This document shows, piece by piece, positions 2-53,213 of a DNA stretch of 64,000 nt (position 1 is the first letter of the stretch; each line of letters begins with the position of its first letter). Source of the stretch: an uncultured Armatimonadia bacterium (lineage in GTDB: Bacteria; Armatimonadota; Zipacnadia; CAZGSV01); NCBI GenBank assembly GCA_964528605.1, contig CAZGSV010000002.1, positions 14,563 through 78,562 of the forward strand, written 5' to 3'. The notes below the pieces were generated by a model, which saw nothing but the letters and a program-made list of their open reading frames with translations, was not told the origin of the DNA and ran no database searches. Position numbers and translations under genes: made by a program.

Positions 2-1939
2 GTCTACACCGAGCCGCAGACTTTCTGGTTCCCGCTCGCGCCCGAGATACCGCGGACCTACGAGGCGTGCATGCAGGAGTTGGCCCGCCTCGAGCGCGAG
101 GGCAATCACGTTGAGAAGCGGCGCGCCCTCGCCACGCGCACCTCGGCCATCTTCGACCGCGACGGCAACTCCTTCGTCACCACCCACGACGCGCCTTGGT
201 GCAACGGCGGTGTCTTCGGCCTCAACCCCGACCCGGAGGTTCCCGGCGTTCTGCCGGGCGCCCCGTCGGGCTGCCCGGGCATCAACCAGTACGACGTGGA
301 CTGGGAGCAAGTGTGGTCCGGCTTCGAGCGCGCCGCTCGTGGCGGTATCCCCGGCTGGAACCCATACGGCGACGGAGCGGCGCCCGATGTCAACATGAAG
401 CACGGCGGCGAGCAGTCCGCGCGCTGCTTCTCAGCCGAGCCCGGTGGCAACGCCGGCCTCTCGCGGACCGTGTTTCTGAATCAGACGGAGGCGCGGGCGC
501 TCCACTTCTCCGGCTGGAGCCGCGCCGAGAACGTGACCGGGCAAGCGGACGCGGACTACTCCCTCTACCTTGACCTCGCCTACGCCGATGGCGACCACCT
601 GTTCGCGCAGATCGCGCCCTTTGCGGTCGGCACGCACGATTGGGAGTTCGCGGAGTTCACCGTCCACCCGGCAAAGCCCGTGCAGCAGGCGACGCTCAAC
701 GCGCTTTTCCGGCGCAATCACGCGGGCACGGTCTGGTTCGATGACCTGCGGCTCTCCGCCGCCGGCTCGGAGGAGAACCTGCTCGGCAACCCTGGCTTGG
801 AAGCCGCAGACACGCCCCCCCCTGAACTCGACGGCGCCTACATTGACTCCATCGAGGGCTGGAGTGACATTCCCAACTTCCGCCGCCAGCACTTCGCCGC
901 TGCCGACGTGCCCCTCACTTTCGATACCGAGACGAAGCGCCCCCTCATTCTCAATGTCTTCTCCATCTACGAGGGCGTGGGGGCGCTCGCGGACGAGATG
1001 CATAAGCGCGGCAAGCTGATCATGGCGAATGCCGCGCTGTGGCGCTGGCCGTGGTGGGCGCATTACCTCGACGCAATGGGCACCGAGACCAACTGGCTCG
1101 CCGAGGGCGAGTACCGGCCCGACGACCATTCCGTCTTCGCCTATCGCCGCGCGCTCAGTTACCAGAAGCCGTACCTGCTGCTGCAGAACACGGACTACGA
1201 CCGCTTCGGGTCGGAGTTGGTCGAGCGCTACATGCAGCGGTGCCTTTTCTACGGTTGCTTTCCGGGGTTCTTCAGCCACGATGCGGCGACCGATCCTTAC
1301 TTCGGCAATCCGCGCTGGTACAACCGCGACCGCCACCTGTTCGCGAAGTACGTCCCGCTCATTCAGAGGATTCACAAAGCCGGTTGGGAGCCGGTGACCC
1401 ACGCGCGCGTCCTCCGCGCCAGCCCCGTATCCGCTGGCCTTGCCGGCCTCGGTCGCACATCCACGCCTCGTAGGGGCGGGATCTCATCCCGCCCGCGCAC
1501 CCCGACCCGCGGACGCGATAAGATCGCGTCCCTACCACCCGACGCTGGTGAGACCGCCCGTAGGGGCGAGCCGCTGGCTCGCCCGACCGTAGGAGCGGCA
1601 TTCCTGCCGCGAGCCCTCCTCAGGGCCGCGCCCGATGTGGCCCTCGTGTCTTTCCCCGACCAACGCGATCACGTCTTCGTTGAACGCTGGGGCCCTGGCA
1701 GGGGGGGCGACCTCTACTTCACCGTCTTCAACAATTCGCCCCACGCGGTGCAAGCCGAAATCCCGATAGACTTCGCGGCGCTTGGGCTGGCCCGCCCTGG
1801 TCCGGCAGAACCGTCCCCCTACACCTGCACCGAACTCGTTGCCGGCCGCGACCTGCCCCTTGGGCCCTCCCGCAGCGTCACGGTGCCCCTCGACCCCGAC
1901 TCCGCCGCGCTGCTGGACATCAGGCCGACCACGCCATAG
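2..1939 (+). CDS. Hypothetical secreted/carbohydrate-active-like protein with a CBM-like beta-sandwich region and a TIM-barrel-like region. It is 5'-partial, because the reading frame is open from nt 2.
   Basis: The ORF track gives 71..1939. The same frame is open upstream to the window edge (VYTEPQTFWFPLAPEIPRTYEAC then MQEL...). It carries a CBM4/9-like 'WFDDLRLS' signature and a C-terminal beta-sandwich-like tail. A low-complexity R/P/G-rich segment at codons ~455-525 coincides with a repeat cluster. Confidence 0.55.
   Translation, partial: VYTEPQTFWFPLAPEIPRTYEACMQELARLEREGNHVEKRRALATRTSAIFDRDGNSFVTTHDAPWCNGGVFGLNPDPEVPGVLPGAPSGCPGINQYDVDWEQVWSGFERAARGGIPGWNPYGDGAAPDVNMKHGGEQSARCFSAEPGGNAGLSRTVFLNQTEARALHFSGWSRAENVTGQADADYSLYLDLAYADGDHLFAQIAPFAVGTHDWEFAEFTVHPAKPVQQATLNALFRRNHAGTVWFDDLRLSAAGSEENLLGNPGLEAADTPPPELDGAYIDSIEGWSDIPNFRRQHFAAADVPLTFDTETKRPLILNVFSIYEGVGALADEMHKRGKLIMANAALWRWPWWAHYLDAMGTETNWLAEGEYRPDDHSVFAYRRALSYQKPYLLLQNTDYDRFGSELVERYMQRCLFYGCFPGFFSHDAATDPYFGNPRWYNRDRHLFAKYVPLIQRIHKAGWEPVTHARVLRASPVSAGLAGLGRTSTPRRGGISSRPRTPTRGRDKIASLPPDAGETARRGEPLARPTVGAAFLPRALLRAAPDVALVSFPDQRDHVFVERWGPGRGGDLYFTVFNNSPHAVQAEIPIDFAALGLARPGPAEPSPYTCTELVAGRDLPLGPSRSVTVPLDPDSAALLDIRPTTP
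1425..1640. repeat. Cluster of GC-rich palindromic repeat units (TAGGGGC / CCCTAC-flanked hairpins) lying inside the ORF 2..1939 and read in-frame.
   Basis: The hairpins are GGGCGGGAT-CTC-ATCCCGCCC, GGACGCGAT-AAG-ATCGCGTCC followed by CTAC, and GGGCGAGCC-GCTG-GCTCGCCC. The unit GTAGGAGCGGCATTCCTGCCGCGAG (1589..1613) recurs at ~20699, ~51841 and inverted at ~36439. Confidence 0.6.
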
Positions 1940-1979
1940 GGACTGGGCACGCCGCGCCCCTGCCGAACCGGCGTCACCG

Positions 1980-2366
1980 CTAGCCTAGCAGCGCCTTGAT
2001 CTTCTCGATGAGACCCTCGGCGCTGGCGAGGGATTCCTGCATTTCCTCGCGGCGCAGTTCGGACTCCGGCGTGCCCGGATACCGTTCCTCGAGGTAGTAC
2101 TCAGTGCTCTTCTGACACGCCGCTCGGAACTCCTCTAGGGAGGGCTCGTACGCGATGGCGTCGTCAAGGAGCGCCTCGAGATCGTGGATGCGGCGAAGCG
2201 CCCAGCCCTTGGAGAGCAGATAACCCTTCAGGTACTTCTCCATGGACTGCTGGATGTTGAAGCCCGCACCGATGAGGTCCTCGAGTGCGAGCAGGTTGCG
2301 CGCGCGCTGTAAGTCGCCCTCGGCGATGCGGAACCAGTGTGGCGGATGCAGGGAGTCCTTACGCAT
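1980..2366 (-). CDS. HEPN-domain protein, the toxin partner of the MNT nucleotidyltransferase.
   Basis: It has an internal ATG at 2366 (MRKDSLHPPHWFRIAEGDLQRARNLL...). The HEPN-like motif is ...KGWALRRIHDLEALLD. It overlaps the stop of the upstream MNT gene by 8 nt. The N-terminal 37 codons of the 1980..2477 track ORF overlap the MNT coding sequence and are probably not translated. Confidence 0.75.
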   Translation of the reverse strand: MRKDSLHPPHWFRIAEGDLQRARNLLALEDLIGAGFNIQQSMEKYLKGYLLSKGWALRRIHDLEALLDDAIAYEPSLEEFRAACQKSTEYYLEERYPGTPESELRREEMQESLASAEGLIEKIKALLG

Positions 2367-2691
2367 CGTACAGGACCACTCCCCCTCCGATGATCTCCTC
2401 CACGAACCCCTGGCGCACGACCAGTCGCTGCTCCAGTTCGCGCGGGGTGAGGACAATGGCGTCGAACGGCATGCCACGCCGCGCGTCGGAGACCAGACGC
2501 CTGACCGCCACCCTCCGGTCTATGGGCCGTTCGTCCGTCTCCTTGATGATGAGCAAGTCAATGTCGCTGTCGCGGTCGGGCGTGCCGTAAGCGTAGGAAC
2601 CGAAGAGGATGATCTTCTGCGGCTTGTAGGCGGCGACCAGCCTGTCAACGATCGCCTTGATGGTCTCGCCAACCTCGGTATCGGCCAGCAT
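2359..2691 (-). CDS. Minimal nucleotidyltransferase (MNT, Pol-beta superfamily), the antitoxin partner of HEPN.
   Basis: It has the GSYAYGTPDRDSDIDLLI nucleotidyltransferase motif. It is 110 aa and is translationally coupled to the downstream HEPN gene. Confidence 0.85.
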   Translation of the reverse strand: MLADTEVGETIKAIVDRLVAAYKPQKIILFGSYAYGTPDRDSDIDLLIIKETDERPIDRRVAVRRLVSDARRGMPFDAIVLTPRELEQRLVVRQGFVEEIIGGGVVLYDA

Positions 2692-2848
2692 TTGCGTAGC
2701 ACCAGTCGGGTCCCCGCGTGTCAGCGACTCCCACGCCTCGGCCCGGGCGCATTATATGCGCGAGTGGGACGGGGGGACAAGGAGGGGCGGGAGGGCGGAG
2801 GACCAGCAGGCAGTAGGTGGTAGTCGGTGAGGGGCGGCCACGCCGAGT

Positions 2849-2938
2849 CGCCCCTACGGGCGGGCCGTCCTACGGCGGGTAAACCGGGCCGCGCGCCCCT
2901 ACGAGGTGGGCCCCCGACTGGGTCGGGGCCCCTACGGA
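2849..2938. repeat. Intergenic cluster of tandem CCCTACGG-containing GC-rich hairpin units.
   Basis: The sequence reads gcccctacgggcgg / gccgtcctacggcgggtaaaccgg / gcgcccctacgaggtgg / GGGCCCCGAC-TGG-GTCGGGGCCC / cctacggagg. The stop of CDS 2932..4293 falls inside it. Confidence 0.5.
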
Positions 2939-4293
2939 GGAGGCAGGCGGAGGGAGAGGTTGGTTCGGCCGGCGGGGAGGTCGAAGGTTGCGAGCAGGAC
3001 TTGGCCGCCGATCTCCTTCAACGCGACGTTGGCATCGGGTTTCTGTCTGGCTTCGGCCGAGGCGGCGGCCTTGGGGTAGTCGCCCCAGAGGGCGAGGCCG
3101 TAGCGAATGGGCCGCTCGGCGCGGGCGCACACGTTGATGGTCTCAATGCCTGCGGAGGATGACCGCTCAATCTCAAACTCAGGCAGGGATTCCTCAGCGG
3201 CAAACTCAATTGCCTCGGTGTCGGCCGCCGCCAAGTAGTTGCGCGCGGCAATGGGCAAGGGCTGATCGCGATCGAAGAACAATTGACAACGGTCGTCGCA
3301 GTAGACGAGCACCTCGGGCCAAGGGCCGCGCGGATCGGCCGCGACCGGGATGTCTTCAAAGAGCATGTAGGTCGCGGGCTGGCGAAGGAAGCGGCGCTTG
3401 AACTCCGCGACTGCTCGCGGCAGCGACACCGCTTGCACGTCCGGCAGCGAAGCAACGTAAGCGAAGAGCCGCTCCAGCATCGCCGCCGTGCGATCCACTG
3501 TCTCCTGCGTGAAGCCGTTGTGCACGATGCCCGTCTCCATCTCGTGCGCCTCTTGGTGCTGAAGGAAGGGGATGAAGTCGTTCCACGCCGTGTTGCGGCG
3601 GTACTGATCGAGGAAGGCGCGCCAGTAGGAGATATCGGTCGCGGTGCAGAGGCGGTTGTTGTCGGCGTCGTTGGGATCGGTGGAATAGACCTCGGGCTTG
3701 CCGGTGCGGAAGGCCTTGTTGAGGTCGCGCGCGGTCCACTCGCAGGCGACGACCTTGCCTGGGTAGCAGGCGGGCGCCTTGAAGGCCTCGCGGGAGGCGT
3801 AGTAGAAGCCCCAGGGCGCGCCGCGGTCGGTGATGTTGTCCACGTAGGCCTGCTCCCAGCAGTGACCCCACAAGCCATCGAAACCCAAGTCTTCGAGAGC
3901 GGCGACCATGGTGTTGCTGCGGTAGCCTCCGCCGGCGACGGTGACCCTGGCCCAAGGGAGTGCCTCGACCACACCCCGCGCCTCCCGTTCGATCTTCTCG
4001 CGCATGCCCTCGTAGTCGAGCGAGACGAAGTACTCGCGCTCGGCCTGACCGGTGCGGGCTTCGGGCGGCGCGCCCAGGTAGACTCCGACCTCGTCGCCGA
4101 ACTCTTGGTGCCATCCAGTTAGGGGCTCGGCCATCTCGCGCGCCGAGCGAGGGCTGACGAGCCAGGTGACGGGTATCCGGCGCCCGTGTGCCAGTTCGCC
4201 AAGCAGTTCCATGCCCTGGCGCGGCGTGCCGTAGCCCCAGGAACGCTCCACGAAGTAGGCCGAGGACACAAAGGTGTAGAGGAAATCTCCCAT
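2932..4293 (-). CDS. Hypothetical protein, possibly with a polysaccharide-deacetylase or GH57-like fold.
   Basis: It is a 454-aa ORF starting at the internal ATG 4293 (MGDFLYTFVSSAYFVERSWGY...). The 41 codons upstream are low-complexity P/A/G-rich. There are no conflicting genes. Confidence 0.5.
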   Translation of the reverse strand: MGDFLYTFVSSAYFVERSWGYGTPRQGMELLGELAHGRRIPVTWLVSPRSAREMAEPLTGWHQEFGDEVGVYLGAPPEARTGQAEREYFVSLDYEGMREKIEREARGVVEALPWARVTVAGGGYRSNTMVAALEDLGFDGLWGHCWEQAYVDNITDRGAPWGFYYASREAFKAPACYPGKVVACEWTARDLNKAFRTGKPEVYSTDPNDADNNRLCTATDISYWRAFLDQYRRNTAWNDFIPFLQHQEAHEMETGIVHNGFTQETVDRTAAMLERLFAYVASLPDVQAVSLPRAVAEFKRRFLRQPATYMLFEDIPVAADPRGPWPEVLVYCDDRCQLFFDRDQPLPIAARNYLAAADTEAIEFAAEESLPEFEIERSSSAGIETINVCARAERPIRYGLALWGDYPKAAASAEARQKPDANVALKEIGGQVLLATFDLPAGRTNLSLRLPPP

Positions 4294-4518
4294 GGGCGCT
4301 TCCTGCCTTTCTTGGGCGAGCCCCAGTGTAGCGCGGCAGAGCCAACAGCGGAACGGCCGAGCAGGGCCGCTTGGGGGGGCAGGCGGAGCCGCCGATCCGC
4401 CGCCGGGGGGAAGCATTGCGGCCGCAGGCCGCAGGGGTTAAAATCAGGCGCGCGATGGGAGCAGCAAGGAAAGTCATCGCGCGAAGGCGGCGCTGTCAGC
4501 CGCAGGGCGGGTGGTGCG

Positions 4519-16171: not shown

Positions 16172-16248
16172 ATACCAGCCCCCTCACGCCGTAGCGGCGA
16201 GCCGCCGGCTCGCCCGTTCTCCCTCGTGGCCTAGGCATCGCCTAGCCC

Positions 16249-17232
16249 CTACCACCGGGGTCCGCTTTGAGGGAAGAACGAGACCAGGAACTTGGGGAGG
16301 GTTCCCTCGTACACGGCCTCGGCCAGGTGCTCGATGCCCTGTTGGTTGCCCCAGGAGTAGTAGATGATCACCTTGCCCTCATATTCGCACAGGTCCACGT
16401 CGGAGTTGTTGAGGTTCACCGCCTGTGCTATGCGCTCCCGCAGCGCGGGGGAGAGCGAGGGATTGGCGATCGCGCGGTCCTCGTCGGAGAACTGCATCAC
16501 CGGATTCAGGGGGCTGCTCTCCCAGGTCACCAGGTCTTTTGACCTGACGATGTGCGGCTCGTAGGTAGGCCCTGGGCGCGCCTCGAGGTAGATCATGTAG
16601 AAGTAGGGATCTAGGAACCGCAGCGCGGGGCAGGCCGTGTAGCGGTCCTTGGAGAAGACGCGGTCCTCCGGCAGCAACCGCCAGTTCAGCAGGTCGTCCG
16701 ATTCGGCAAAGCGCATCGTGAAAGGCTCCCCGACCACCTCGGGCGGCTCGCCCACCTCGAACGCCATGACGTAGCCCTTCAGCCCCTTGCACACGGAGGT
16801 GTTGTAGTTGGCCCAGCCCGGCAAGATCAGAGCCGGCTGGGTGGCCCAGTTCTCCAGGTCGCTGGACCAGAAGACCTGAATCCGCTCGCCGCCCCATTTG
16901 TCCACCGCGAACACATACAGCCTATCGTCCTCGACGTAGGCGCTGCCCAGGTGGTATCCGACGGCGAACGGGGGTGTGGCGTGACCGCTCTCAACCTCAA
17001 TGAAGCGGAAGTAGGAGTCGCCGGTGTTGTTGGCGTGGTAGTTCTCGCGCACGTATTCGAACCGATAGAGGCGACCGCGGTACACCACCGGCGTGGTCTC
17101 GACCATGTCGCAGTCTATCGTGCCCAGTTTACGGATCACCGGCGGGCGAAGAGGCTGCGCGGAATCCCCATTCGCAGCGCACCGACCAATAGCAGCAACC
17201 AACGTCAGAAGCATCATCGTTCTCATCACCAT
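16249..17232 (-). CDS. Secreted hypothetical protein, possibly a beta-propeller glycoside-hydrolase-like fold.
   Basis: It has a signal peptide MRTMMLLTLVAAIGRCAA and shows no antisense conflict. Assigning it to the GH43/GH32 superfamily is inference from sequence composition only. Confidence 0.5.
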   Translation of the reverse strand: MVMRTMMLLTLVAAIGRCAANGDSAQPLRPPVIRKLGTIDCDMVETTPVVYRGRLYRFEYVRENYHANNTGDSYFRFIEVESGHATPPFAVGYHLGSAYVEDDRLYVFAVDKWGGERIQVFWSSDLENWATQPALILPGWANYNTSVCKGLKGYVMAFEVGEPPEVVGEPFTMRFAESDDLLNWRLLPEDRVFSKDRYTACPALRFLDPYFYMIYLEARPGPTYEPHIVRSKDLVTWESSPLNPVMQFSDEDRAIANPSLSPALRERIAQAVNLNNSDVDLCEYEGKVIIYYSWGNQQGIEHLAEAVYEGTLPKFLVSFFPQSGPRW

Positions 17233-17323
17233 TCGTTTCCCGCCCCGTTCCCCGTCGTAGGGGCGTAACGCAATACGCCCCTGCCCTGCTCCGTGAGGGC
17301 GTGCGGCCCCCTACGTGTCGCTC

Positions 17324-20140: not shown

Positions 20141-20232
20141 GGAGAGGTGGCTGAGCGGCCGAAAGCGCCCGACTCGAAATCGGGTGGTGGGGTCAAAAGC
20201 CTCACCCGTGGGTTCGAATCCCACCCTCTCCG
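20141..20232 (+). tRNA. tRNA-Ser (anticodon CGA), class II with a long variable arm. CCA is encoded at 20233..20235.
   Basis: The acceptor is GGAGAGG/CCTCTCC, the anticodon stem-loop is CCCGA-CUCGAAA-UCGGG, the T-arm is GTGGG-TTCGAAT-CCCAC and the discriminator is G. Confidence 0.85.
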
Positions 20233-20318
20233 CCACCCAGACGCACCGGCGTCTAGTGCGCACCTTGGCATTGCTCTCACTTGTAGGAGCACGCTCCCGC
20301 GTGCGACCGCGCCAGCGC

Positions 20319-20347
20319 GGAGAGGTGTCCGAGTTGGTCTAAGGAAC
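20319..20347 (+). pseudogene. 5' fragment of a tRNA-Ser gene (acceptor 5' strand plus D-arm only), followed by unrelated repeat-family sequence.
   Basis: GGAGAGGTGTCCGAGTTGGTCTAAGGAAC is identical to the first 29 nt of the intact tRNA-Ser(GGA) 94 nt downstream. It then diverges into the hairpin CCCCGCC-TCT-GGCGGGG followed by TAGG. Confidence 0.5.
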
Positions 20348-20412: not shown

Positions 20413-20504
20413 GGAGAGGTGTCCGAGTTGGTCTAAGGAACGTGACTGGAAATCGCGTAGGCGGGTTAACCCCTGCCTCGTGGGTTCGAATCCCACCCTC
20501 TCCG
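20413..20504 (+). tRNA. tRNA-Ser (anticodon GGA), class II. CCA is encoded.
   Basis: The acceptor is GGAGAGG/CCTCTCC, the anticodon loop is CUGGAAA, the T-arm is GTGGG-TTCGAAT-CCCAC and the discriminator is G, followed by CCA. Confidence 0.85.
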
Positions 20505-20525
20505 CCATCCGCTCAGGGACAACCA

Positions 20526-20600
20526 ATGTGCACTTCCCAGCAACGCTGGTTCGTCTACATCCTGCGCAGCACCAAGACCGGGCGGTACTACGTTCTCGGC
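20526..20600 (+). pseudogene. Remnant of a GIY-YIG nuclease (YhbQ/UPF0213-like) gene, truncated after ~25 codons by repeat-family sequence.
   Basis: MCTSQQRWFVYILRSTKTGRYYVLG matches the GIY-YIG N-terminal block (fVYILrc.dGslYvG). The expected TxDLxRRLxEH block is replaced by the translation of the CGGGCCGATTAAGAATCGGCCC repeat. Confidence 0.5.
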
Positions 20601-20730
20601 GCCTGGCGGCGTCGCGGGCCGATTAAGAATCGGCCCCTACGTCGCCGGGTCGGCGGGGGGTTCCTACAATGGGCGAGGCGGCGGGTCGCCGGGTTTCCTG
20701 TAGGAGCGGCATTCCTGCCGCGAAGCGACG
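20590..20730. repeat. Composite of GC-rich palindromic repeat-family units (motif CGCGGGCCGATTAAGAATCGGCCCCTACG plus CTGTAGGAGCGGCATTCCTGCCGCGA).
   Basis: The 9-bp-stem hairpin GGGCCGATT-AAG-AATCGGCCC followed by CTACG is nearly identical at ~23631..23660 with similar flanks. The second unit matches 1589..1613. Confidence 0.55.
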
Positions 20731-23609: not shown

Positions 23610-23720
23610 CTCTCGGCACCTCTCAGTGCCGCGGGCCGATTAAGAATCGGCCCCTACGCCGCCCCGCCAACGGCGGGCCGGTAAGAGGGCCGGTCATCAA
23701 CCCGCCCGCTACTCCGGCTG
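23610..23720. repeat. Repeat-family units within a 660-bp intergenic region.
   Basis: gccgcgggccgattaagaatcggcccctacgccgccccgcc is a near copy of the 20611 unit. GGGTAAACCCGGACGCTA (in reverse at ~23745) matches the GGGTAAACCGCGACGCTACC motif at 48551 and 49836. Confidence 0.5.
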
Positions 23721-36137: not shown

Positions 36138-36426
36138 GGCTACTCACCTCGCGGAGAGCATTCCTCCCGCACTCGCGAGCGGGTACTGAGGTGAGGGCAG
36201 CCGGTCGGAACGCCCCACCAACTCCATGGGCCGTGCATCAGACCAGGGAGCCAGCGACATGGAACCACCCTTCTCTGCGGCATCTTAGCGGAACACCTTC
36301 AGGTCCGCCAGAGGACCGCCCACGGGAGAACGGCGGCTGGGGGGCCAACTCTTGCGGCTCCCCGCCTCTGGCGGGGCGGCCAGGGCTGGCGCCCAGGCCC
36401 TACGATCACGACGGGCGGCGGCGCCG

Positions 36427-36465
36427 ATTCGCGGGCTGTCGCGGCAGGAATGCCGCTCCTACAGG
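36427..36465. repeat. Inverted copy of the GTAGGAGCGGCATTCCTGCCGCGA repeat unit.
   Basis: tcgcggcaggaatgccgctcctacagg is the reverse complement of the units at 1589 and 20699. Nearby hairpins are CCCCGCC-TCT-GGCGGGG (36359) and GGCGACTCG-CC-GAGTCGTCC. Confidence 0.55.
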
Positions 36466-46089: not shown

Positions 46090-46771
46090 CCCGCACCATC
46101 AACTTCGGCCCCTTCCAGACCGCGTCCACGAAATGGTCTCGGTTAGCCAGGCGCCCACTGAACTCCTCGCTGCCCATCACCACGGGGCTGATCTGTCGCG
46201 CCAGTGCCTCCTCCAAAGGGCCCAACACTGGCACCAGGTCGCGCAGGCCAGCTTCGCCCACCACAAAGAGATCAATGTCACTGTCAGGCCGCGGTGTGCC
46301 CTCCGCGAAAGAACCATATATGAAGGCGACCCGAATGCCTTCGAGTGCCGCGAGGGCCTCGCGCACCCTGTCGACAAGCCCCACGGTCTTGATCATAATG
46401 GACCGCAACTCGGGCAATATGGGGCAGGAGGTGTTGGCCCGGTACACCACTTCTCGGCCGTGCTTCCTGCGCTCCAGTACGCCCATCGCCGCCAGAGCGC
46501 CGAGATGATAGGAGGCGACCGTGGGAGCCACACCCACCCGGGCTGCGGCCTCCGACATGTAGAACCCGCGATCAGGGTTCAGCAGGAAGAGCCCCAGGAG
46601 TGCCTCTCTGGCTCGTGAGAAAAGGCCAATCCCGGAGGAGCCTCCCTTTCCGGGTGGTCTACCGTGGCCCGGCTTCGCGCGACGCCGGGTGACCCTCACC
46701 AGGCTGCTACGGGCGGGGGCTCGGCCGCGTTTCCCCCCCTGCTCAGCAGACTCCCGCATTCTTGGTGACAA
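45965..46771 (-). CDS. Winged-HTH (ArsR-like) domain fused to a minimal nucleotidyltransferase (MNT).
   Basis: The HTH is LGLFLLNPDRGFYMSEAAARVGVAPTVASYHLGALAAMGVLER. The NTase motif is IYGSFAEGTPRPDSDIDLFVVGE. The exact start is uncertain. Confidence 0.65.
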   Translation of the reverse strand: MSPRMRESAEQGGKRGRAPARSSLVRVTRRRAKPGHGRPPGKGGSSGIGLFSRAREALLGLFLLNPDRGFYMSEAAARVGVAPTVASYHLGALAAMGVLERRKHGREVVYRANTSCPILPELRSIMIKTVGLVDRVREALAALEGIRVAFIYGSFAEGTPRPDSDIDLFVVGEAGLRDLVPVLGPLEEALARQISPVVMGSEEFSGRLANRDHFVDAVWKGPKLMVRGEEGDLERVGSRRKTGRAAGKRTGDRGAVREGNGAHPRRQG

Positions 46772-48487: not shown

Positions 48488-48635
48488 CCCGCCACCTCAC
48501 AGGGCCCGGGCCCGCAGGTTAGGTCGCGGCAGCCGCGTCGTGGGTAAACCGCGACGCTACCGGGCGTTGGCAACACATCCGCGTCGTGGGTGCACCACGA
48601 CGCTACCGCCAGGATGGAAAGGTTCGGGCCAGCGC

Positions 48636-49790: not shown

Positions 49791-49990
49791 TCTCTCACCT
49801 CATGATTCTCGGTTCGGTGGTTTGCCGTCGCGGGTAAACCGCGACGCTACCGACATGCGCGAGCGGATGCTGCACAAACTCCTTACAGGCGGACGCAGAA
49901 CAGCCACACCGAATCACGCACGAGGCGAATGGCTGCCTCCCTCGGTGCTCCGCGCCACAAGCCAGAGCGGGTACGCCGGGGTCAGACGAC

Positions 49991-51678: not shown

Positions 51679-51917
51679 CTTGTCACCTCGTAGTGCGGAT
51701 GATTGCGGCCGACGGGCGGCACTGTAGCGCCGCAGACGGTGTCTTTCAAGGCGGTCGTGGGGATGTATGGCCCGCCCCTACTTCCGCGGCGCCGCCAGGG
51801 GCCGCTGCGCAGGGGCGAGGCGCCTGCCTCACCCGCTGTCCTGTAGGAGCGGCATTCTTGTTCACCCGCCTCAGGAGGGCCCCCAGTTCGCAGCGGCGAG
51901 CCGTGGGCTGGCGCGCG

Positions 51918-53072: not shown

Positions 53073-53213
53073 TTCTCAACCGCACCCCTTCCTCGTTGAC
53101 TGGGGACAGCGTGGGGTCAAGTCTAGCGAGGAGGCGGCGGCGGTTCAACGGCAACCCGCGCTCGGCCCCGATAGATCGCGCCAGGCATGGCGCTCCTACG
53201 CGGATGGGCGGGC

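Follow-up and report, generated by a model that had tools for sequence, protein, structure and literature searches.

A cluster of four short palindromic repeats lies within a protein-coding gene near the start of the 64,000-nt stretch of DNA analyzed here (hereafter the window), which comes from an uncultured, Armatimonadota-like bacterium. The repeats are repetitive extragenic palindromic (REP) sequences headed by the tetranucleotide GTAG; they occupy positions 1470-1612, inside the open reading frame (ORF) 2..1939, and leave its frame unbroken. The reading that we consider probable is that four GTAG-type REPs were inserted into an interdomain linker of a protein resembling carbohydrate-active enzymes (CAZymes), where they would be read through by ribosomes and tolerated as a selfish passenger without a function of their own. 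In this way a gene from a little-studied lineage would have taken up a REP cluster into its coding sequence, and the case is documented by an orthologue with the empty site, a structural model, and three alleles from nature.

A GTAG tetranucleotide stands at one hairpin end in all four units (GTAG at 1470, 1560, and 1589; CTAC at 1532-1535). An initial annotation of the window had described repeat-family hairpins and an extra unit lying within the ORF with its frame intact, and all of the features it described are present in the sequence. Its three TAG triplets do fall out of frame, as they start at 1471, 1561, and 1590, and the codons of the ORF begin at positions that are 2 mod 3. The units and the structures associated with them are the following:

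1470..1494, plus strand: REP1, consisting of GTAG followed by GGGCGGGAT/CTC/ATCCCGCCC (whole unit GTAGGGGCGGGATCTCATCCCGCCC), with a 9-bp stem and a 3-nt loop
1511..1535, minus strand: REP2, inverted, consisting of GGACGCGAT/AAG/ATCGCGTCC followed by CTAC (1532-1535), and reading GTAGGGACGCGATCTTATCGCGTCC on the minus strand
1560..1584, plus strand: REP3, consisting of GTAG followed by GGGCGAGCC/GCT/GGCTCGCCC (whole unit GTAGGGGCGAGCCGCTGGCTCGCCC)
1589..1612, plus strand: REP4, GTAGGAGCGGCATTCCTGCCGCGA, with a 6-bp stem and a 4-nt loop
1470..1535, no strand assigned: inverted REP1/REP2 doublet with its GTAG ends outside, a REPIN-like or 'HH' dimer, recognized from its inverted-repeat arms
1608..1630, plus strand: fifth hairpin, lacking a GTAG head and overlapping the REP4 tail (CGCG-A-GCCCT/CCTC/AGGGC-CGCG), seen in the RNA fold

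Perfect 9-bp stems closed by 3-nt loops characterize REP1, REP2, and REP3, all of the GTAGGG(G/A)C type. REP4 is GTAG-1-like: its GTAG is followed by two unpaired bases, GA, and its tail is conserved. The arms of the REP1/REP2 doublet are 28 nt long, 82% complementary, and 10 nt apart, and in the predicted minimum-free-energy RNA fold of 1440-1640 they pair as one long hairpin; this region folds more stably than its shuffles (z = -2.6). REP3 and REP4 are arranged in tandem, separated by 4 nt. The inverted doublet and the two tandem units that follow it would together resemble a small bacterial interspersed mosaic element (BIME). No second copy of the fifth hairpin was found within the window, and an Rfam search of 1200-3100 returned no family match at the cluster and one chance-level match elsewhere. 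The REPIN concept is said to go back to Bertels and Rainey in 2011.

Judged by their sequence, the cluster units are REPs of the GTAG type. Published GTAG REPs have stems of 6-13 bp, loops mostly of 2-3 nt, and compensatory stem variants, and they are found both in clusters and as 'HH' dimers, whose GTAG ends face outward; members of the GTAG-1 family, to which the Pseudomonas REPs belong, leave two bases unpaired after GTAG and have a 3-bp tail that is conserved (Di Nocera et al. 2013, PMC3733652). The units described here share with the GTAG REPs, BIMEs, and REPINs that are associated with REP-associated tyrosine transposases (RAYTs) a length of 21-25 nt, the GTAG head, the GC-rich stem-loop, compensatory stem variation, inverted doublets, small clusters, and, as far as the 64 kb extend, multicopy occurrence mostly between or downstream of genes (Nunvar et al. 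2010, PMC2817692; PMC3733652). They differ in that the present copy lies inside a coding sequence, in that the host is an uncultured Armatimonadota-like bacterium, and in that no RAYT was found in the 64 kb.

Repetition within the window is part of the evidence for the identity of the element. The octamer GTAGGRGC occurs 18 times against an expectation of 4.1, a count that none of 100 shuffles reached, and a strict definition (GTAG plus a perfect or near-perfect hairpin) recovers 13 occurrences, compared with a mean of 1.3 and a maximum of 5 in 30 shuffles. All ten of the strict hairpins outside the host ORF are intergenic or located at gene ends, according to a gene map built from ORF length and third-position GC. 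Their stem sequences vary among copies yet remain complementary, as expected of REPs. The 24-nt REP4 unit has about five copies within the 64 kb, including exact ones at 20700-20723 (plus strand) and 36439-36462 (minus strand), a partial one at 51843, and a variant at 53176-53200, and REP3 is 93% identical to an intergenic copy at 16189-16216. The expectation that the units would prove to be multicopy is therefore borne out, both by their repetition across the 64-kb window and by the occurrence of the 24-nt unit in many other genomes.

The initial annotation had called the insert a REP/MITE-like element. [quoted passage not shown] Bacterial MITEs such as Correia/NEMIS and cyanobacterial Nezha are small non-autonomous repeats that can become part of ORFs, and they carry terminal inverted repeats derived from insertion sequences (15-30 bp, bounding an element of 70-300 bp) together with target-site duplications, features in which they are unlike the present cluster. 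The sole long inverted repeat here is the internal REP1/REP2 pair, and the flanks of the cluster (1413-1469 and 1613-1664) contain no flanking direct repeat and have no other copy within the window.

The distribution of the 24-nt unit extends far beyond this lineage. In an exact-match scan that covered one genome per species, the REP4 24-mer was found in at least 111 genome stretches, often in many copies per genome, with hosts among the matches listed that include Geobacter, Geomonas, Geomesophilobacter, Armatimonadia, Verrucomicrobiota, Thermoanaerobaculia, Gammaproteobacteria, Zipacnadia, Latescibacterota, and others. At the level of distant groups, the matches listed place exact GTAGGAGCGGCATTCCTGCCGCGA in Desulfobacterota, Armatimonadota, Acidobacteriota, Spirochaetota, Latescibacterota, Bacillota, Verrucomicrobiota, and Gammaproteobacteria. 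A perfect match of 24 nt between phyla is hard to square with vertical inheritance of RAYTs; families common to distant organisms have been mentioned previously (Di Nocera et al. 2013, PMC3733652). On a contig of a Geomonas sp. metagenome-assembled genome (MAG) (CAZFMI010000108.1, 3150-3880), copies of this unit, with its GTAG-1 hallmarks, flank a gene with a Pfam Y1_Tnp match (E = 2.3e-8) and the PDHFH and YVVMNPVRAGLV motifs typical of RAYTs, which is a further likeness to the published systems. An inverted copy of the unit (3551-3574) also lies in frame inside this RAYT coding sequence, where it encodes ...YRGRNAAPTR... within the span of the Y1_Tnp match.

The gene that hosts the cluster is open from nt 2 to a stop codon at 1937-1939. 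What had been taken for a 622-codon ORF is instead the C-terminal 645 codons of a gene of approximately 1180 codons that is cut by the window edge. The features of this gene that bear on the insertion are as follows:

2..1939, plus strand: 3' part of the host gene, 645 codons plus stop, recognized from the ORF, GC by codon position, and homologues
1413..1664, plus strand: segment that is extra relative to the family-consensus linker, 84 codons, recognized from homologue spacing, the orthologue L115, and codon-position GC
1445..1657, plus strand: residues 482-552, predicted in the AlphaFold2 model to form a disordered loop, with a composition rich in Arg, Pro, Ala, and Gly
1665..1936, plus strand: C-terminal beta-sandwich domain, still in frame, with third-position GC of 0.81 and a predicted local distance difference test score (pLDDT) of ~88-97

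The product is predicted to be a secreted, multidomain, CAZyme-like protein of ~1180 amino acids. It has 806 homologues, mostly hypothetical proteins of ~1030 amino acids from MAGs of Armatimonadota and Hydrogenedentes. Pfam gives a weak Melibiase_C match at residues 564-629 of the window protein, and Foldseek matches include CBM16/22/4 modules and enzymes of GH10 and GH66. An AlphaFold2 model built on 121 sequences has a mean pLDDT of 87.8; a helix at 437-460, a strand at 472-475, and a beta-sandwich from residue 554 are modeled with confidence, and the flanking domains exceed a pLDDT of 90. The model and the weak Melibiase_C match place the cluster between a catalytic-like domain and a C-terminal beta-sandwich, in agreement with the initial annotation.

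That the cluster is an insertion is established by comparison with homologues, which show a gap exactly at the position of the insert, as the initial annotation had proposed that orthologues might. The spacing between the motifs GWxPxx and ERxG is 10-14 residues in 108 of 110 homologues, 36 residues in the closest database protein to the window protein (P0001), and 94 residues in the window. In L115, a metagenome orthologue that is 78% identical, the linker between THAR and VYVERWG comprises 20 residues (AVSATPVGLTEGAPGDLSTQ) encoded by DNA with GC-rich, coding-like third positions and with no hairpins or inverted repeats; it is the empty site. The linker of the window protein is 67 residues longer than that of L115, and 143 nt of the excess are the REP cluster proper. 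The composition of the DNA changes with the insert: GC at the three codon positions is 0.65/0.47/0.87 upstream and 0.71/0.55/0.81 downstream, versus an essentially flat 0.75/0.70/0.73 across 1413-1664. The claim of an insertion accordingly stands; the span of 1425-1640 originally given for it does not, as the extra segment covers ~1413-1664 and the REP cluster proper only 1470-1612. On this evidence the segment 1413-1664 would consist of a clade-specific native linker of ~20-30 amino acids plus the REP cluster.

The linker into which the cluster was inserted is a clade-specific hotspot of length variation. P0001 (L002:1745-1835) and L115 (485-545) have extended linkers of their own at the REP insertion site (+25 and +15 residues, respectively), and more than 100 more distant homologues have a fixed linker of 4-5 residues there. 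Because the L115 linker is short and free of REPs, and given the spacing in P0001, the clade probably already had a variable linker of 20-30 residues before the REP cluster arrived. We also considered whether the P0001 and L115 linkers might be decayed REPs and found no support for this idea: L115 contains no inverted repeat, and P0001 contains only weak palindromes and no GTAG head.

The position of the insert relative to the fold is clear in the structural model, where pLDDT falls below 50 at residues 482-485 and 491-552, so that the insert is modeled as a disordered loop between two intact, well-folded domains. These observations suggest the following course of events. Propagation of GTAG-type REPs is ascribed to a RAYT (Y1/HUH) transposase acting on single-stranded DNA, and such a process may have delivered the cluster into the linker between the catalytic-like domain and the C-terminal beta-sandwich, which would already have varied at 20-30 residues. 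Stop codons would be rare in GC-rich REP stems, and the total length happens to keep the frame; therefore, ribosomes should read through the cluster and add a disordered, Arg/Pro/Ala/Gly-rich loop of ~60-70 residues, with both folded domains left intact. The cluster would be tolerated because it landed in a linker. Predicted tryptic peptides of the window protein that are pertinent to read-through are IASLPPDAGETAR and GEPLARPTVGAAFLPR.

Two further alleles from metagenomes carry the cluster at the same place. The first, L114 (Ga0315289_10026455), is 98% identical to the window in DNA and retains the cluster in frame, with a single difference from the window cluster that falls in the REP3 loop; its gene is full length, with 1182 codons and a signal-peptide-like N-terminus. 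The second, L117 (Ga0315282_10291939, 1-1072), carries the cluster with changes. Both arms of its REP2 inner stem have been exchanged, with full compensation between them (GGACCCCGCC-GAG-GCGGGGTCC instead of GGACGCGAT-AAG-ATCGCGTCC), which makes the unit 1 nt longer and gives the REP2 sequence GGACCCCGCCGAGGCGGGGTCC; changes at 1507 and 1537 flank the exchanged hairpin, and its REP3 is identical to the intergenic copy at 16189-16216 of the window. A protein search with the C-terminal 216 residues, made for further alleles, yielded six ordinary short-linker family fragments and no new allele.

The presence of the cluster in these independent metagenome assemblies shows that it is not an assembly artefact. 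This bears on the proposal that the segment is a native low-complexity linker merely resembling REPs, or a misjoin induced by repeats, which we regard as scarcely credible. The extended, variable linkers of P0001 and L115 would accommodate a native origin, but one unit of the cluster is 100% and another 93% identical to intergenic copies, the units show the GTAG-plus-hairpin architecture, codon-position GC is flat across the segment, and the L115 linker is without hairpins. In all three independent assemblies the same gene continues on either side of the cluster, in the proper order. The sequence analysis, as far as it can go, refutes this proposal.

A more serious rival concerns the state of the gene. 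Under this reading, the REP cluster disrupted the gene or uncoupled its C-terminal domain, and the open frame is the coincidence of a young pseudogene that has not yet decayed; we consider this rather unlikely, although it has a clear claim to attention. Between the window and L114, dN/dS (the ratio of nonsynonymous to synonymous substitution rates) over the 470 codons upstream of the insert is 0.18 (dS = 0.057), the frame is kept through 84 extra codons in two of the three alleles, and the L114 ORF is intact from its signal-peptide-like start through all 1182 codons. The domain downstream of the insert likewise keeps its high third-position GC and retains the family-invariant residues E561, R562, and G564. 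All of this favors retained function of the gene.

Several observations weigh against tolerated read-through, and most of them favor the pseudogene. In L117, the extra base in REP2 shifts the frame, a stop codon follows 13 codons later, and no compensating indel is present; the same allele carries G461R, which replaces a glycine conserved in every one of 121 sequences. The frameshift implies that cells can, at least for a time, do without the C-terminal domain or the gene. In the sequence downstream of the insert, 7 nonsynonymous changes and 1 synonymous change separate the window from L114 (omega about 2.6), and the substitution ratio there differs from that upstream (Fisher P = 0.008 on codon counts); across all three alleles, variable sites are spread evenly over the codon positions (6/5/5). 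The open frame is itself weak evidence for selection: in this 67% GC genome, 31% of 84-codon windows in any frame lack a stop, and combined with the 1-in-3 likelihood of a length that is a multiple of three this gives a chance of about 0.06-0.1 for an open, in-frame insert, which is not small. The window and L114 are also nearly identical across the insert (a single difference in its 252 nt, and one in the 390 nt of 1343-1732), which suggests recent recombinational spread; the divergence of the flanks may then be older than the insertion, and the upstream dN/dS would carry little information on selection since that event. Finally, no RAYT was found in the 64-kb window, either by Pfam (20 ORFs) or by a six-frame scan for PDH[hydrophobic]H plus Y..NPV motifs.

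The substitution ratios are difficult to read in either direction. They are confounded by the fast evolution of the C-terminal domain and by the recent recombination to which the near-identical insert region points; identity to L115 is 51% in the C-terminal domain and 83% in the upstream part, consistent with a domain that evolves fast intrinsically, which removes some of the force of the downstream changes as a sign of decay. The initial annotation had left open the choice between a tolerated linker and a disrupted gene; judged on sequence, a tolerated read-through linker is the most likely status of the gene, with a young pseudogene as its serious rival.

The same near-identity of the window and L114 across the insert lends support to a reading in which the cluster has been co-opted and kept as a nucleic-acid element, for instance as an mRNA-stabilizing or processing hairpin, an interdomain translational pause, or a gyrase or IHF site: 1 difference in 252 nt compares with ~14 expected at the upstream dS. 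The stability of the predicted RNA fold relative to shuffles points the same way, and elsewhere REPs have been reported to function as elements of RNA or DNA (Di Nocera et al. 2013, PMC3733652). The low divergence nevertheless reaches into the non-REP flanks (1343-1732), which fits a patchy, recombination-like pattern of divergence across the whole gene, and in L117 REP2 has been freely replaced and the frame lost. As the cluster moreover has no Rfam match and is absent from the orthologue L115 and from more than 100 homologues, we hold co-option to be very improbable.

The L117 allele raises one further possibility. The REPs in the cluster look as though they are exchanged as whole units rather than point-mutated, most simply, we infer, by ectopic conversion from other copies. 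Taken further, the cluster could be a site of ongoing in-place REP turnover, by ectopic gene conversion or RAYT-mediated exchange, that toggles the frame of the C-terminal domain, an idea that we put forward as improbable. Were it true, REP length variants of 1 nt would act as a crude heritable on/off or domain-architecture switch in a natural population, and REP insertions could be the raw material for the variable linkers of the clade at this site. Independently of that idea, the L117 allele shows that such clusters stay mutable and can break a host gene.

We return to the tolerated insertion to compare it with known systems. The initial annotation had considered intragenic, frame-preserving insertions of this kind to be rarely documented; in fact, a published catalogue covers intragenic REPs of the GTAG and CGTC types in several species, including Opitutus terrae, Thauera, and Rickettsia conorii (Di Nocera et al. 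2013, PMC3733652). Over half of these intragenic REPs are dimers or groups that encode 20-30 residues, the clusters of Thauera and R. conorii encode 43-82 residues, and the placement of these inserts in the flexible linkers of modular proteins has been put forward as a reason why they may be neutral; the Rickettsia palindromic elements (RPEs) are the classic case of in-frame insertion (all in Di Nocera et al. 2013, PMC3733652). The locus described here fits this precedent, in which dimers or clusters are read through in frame within otherwise conserved genes, in every respect tested. It differs in that the earlier cases involve mainly DNA replication and repair genes from single reference genomes, whereas the present host protein is CAZyme-like and secreted and is represented by three population alleles, one of them frame-broken by a REP swap.

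The RPEs, reportedly described by Ogata and colleagues in 2000, are likewise selfish palindromic repeats found in frame in apparently functional genes, with the encoded segment outside the conserved fold. They are unlike the present cluster in being single, AT-rich elements of 100-150 bp that are restricted to Rickettsia and mostly lack the GTAG tag, in contrast to the four GC-rich GTAG REPs of 24-25 nt observed here, and membership of the cluster in the RPE-1 to RPE-8 families is implausible given the host taxon and the GC-rich GTAG units. The phenomenon is thus already known, and no new element type or mechanism is revealed; what is new is the host lineage, the host gene, and the availability of population alleles. 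The case favors the notion that GC-rich REPs can coexist with an open reading frame and lengthen the linkers of proteins. It also carries a warning for annotation, in that a low-complexity stretch rich in Arg, Pro, and Gly may be a translated REP when the protein comes from a GC-rich MAG.

Outside the host gene, the hairpin scan located the following further REP copies, the first of which was placed with the aid of the gene map as an example of an intergenic pair:

16191..16252: intergenic REP pair, 16191-16214 on the plus strand and 16228-16252 on the minus strand
2850-2935: REP copies
17257-17280: REP copy
20616-20640: REP copy
23633-23657: REP copy
36378-36403: REP copy
46684-46710: REP copy
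48582-48606: REP copy
49826-49850: REP copy

Directly downstream of the host gene, at 1980-2691 on the minus strand, lies a nucleotidyltransferase/HEPN pair (NTP_transf_2/Polbeta at 2359-2691 and HEPN at 1980-2477) in an arrangement familiar from toxin-antitoxin modules. An exact-protein look-up with a neighboring gene matched a single 924-bp Logan contig (ERR4334732), which is 99.9% identical. A cluster of three minus-strand GTAG REPs at 2848-2935 lies directly downstream of the gene 2932..4416 (minus strand). The TAG stop codon of that gene (2934-2932) is the TAG of the GTAG head of the first of these REPs, so that the REP supplies the stop codon.

REPs are also interspersed with two tRNA-Ser genes, CGA at 20141-20235 and GGA at 20413-20507; the copies in this region are at 20283, 20616-20640, and 20700-20723. 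At 20318-20346 the 5' end of tRNA-Ser(GGA) is duplicated over 29 nt without the remainder of the tRNA, and this copy may be a remnant of integration or rearrangement. A short reading frame at 20537-20640, which encodes QQRWFVYILRSTKTGRYYV and presumably resembles the N-terminus of small GIY-YIG (UPF0213-type) proteins, runs directly into the REP at 20616-20640, and it may represent a second gene of the window truncated by a REP.

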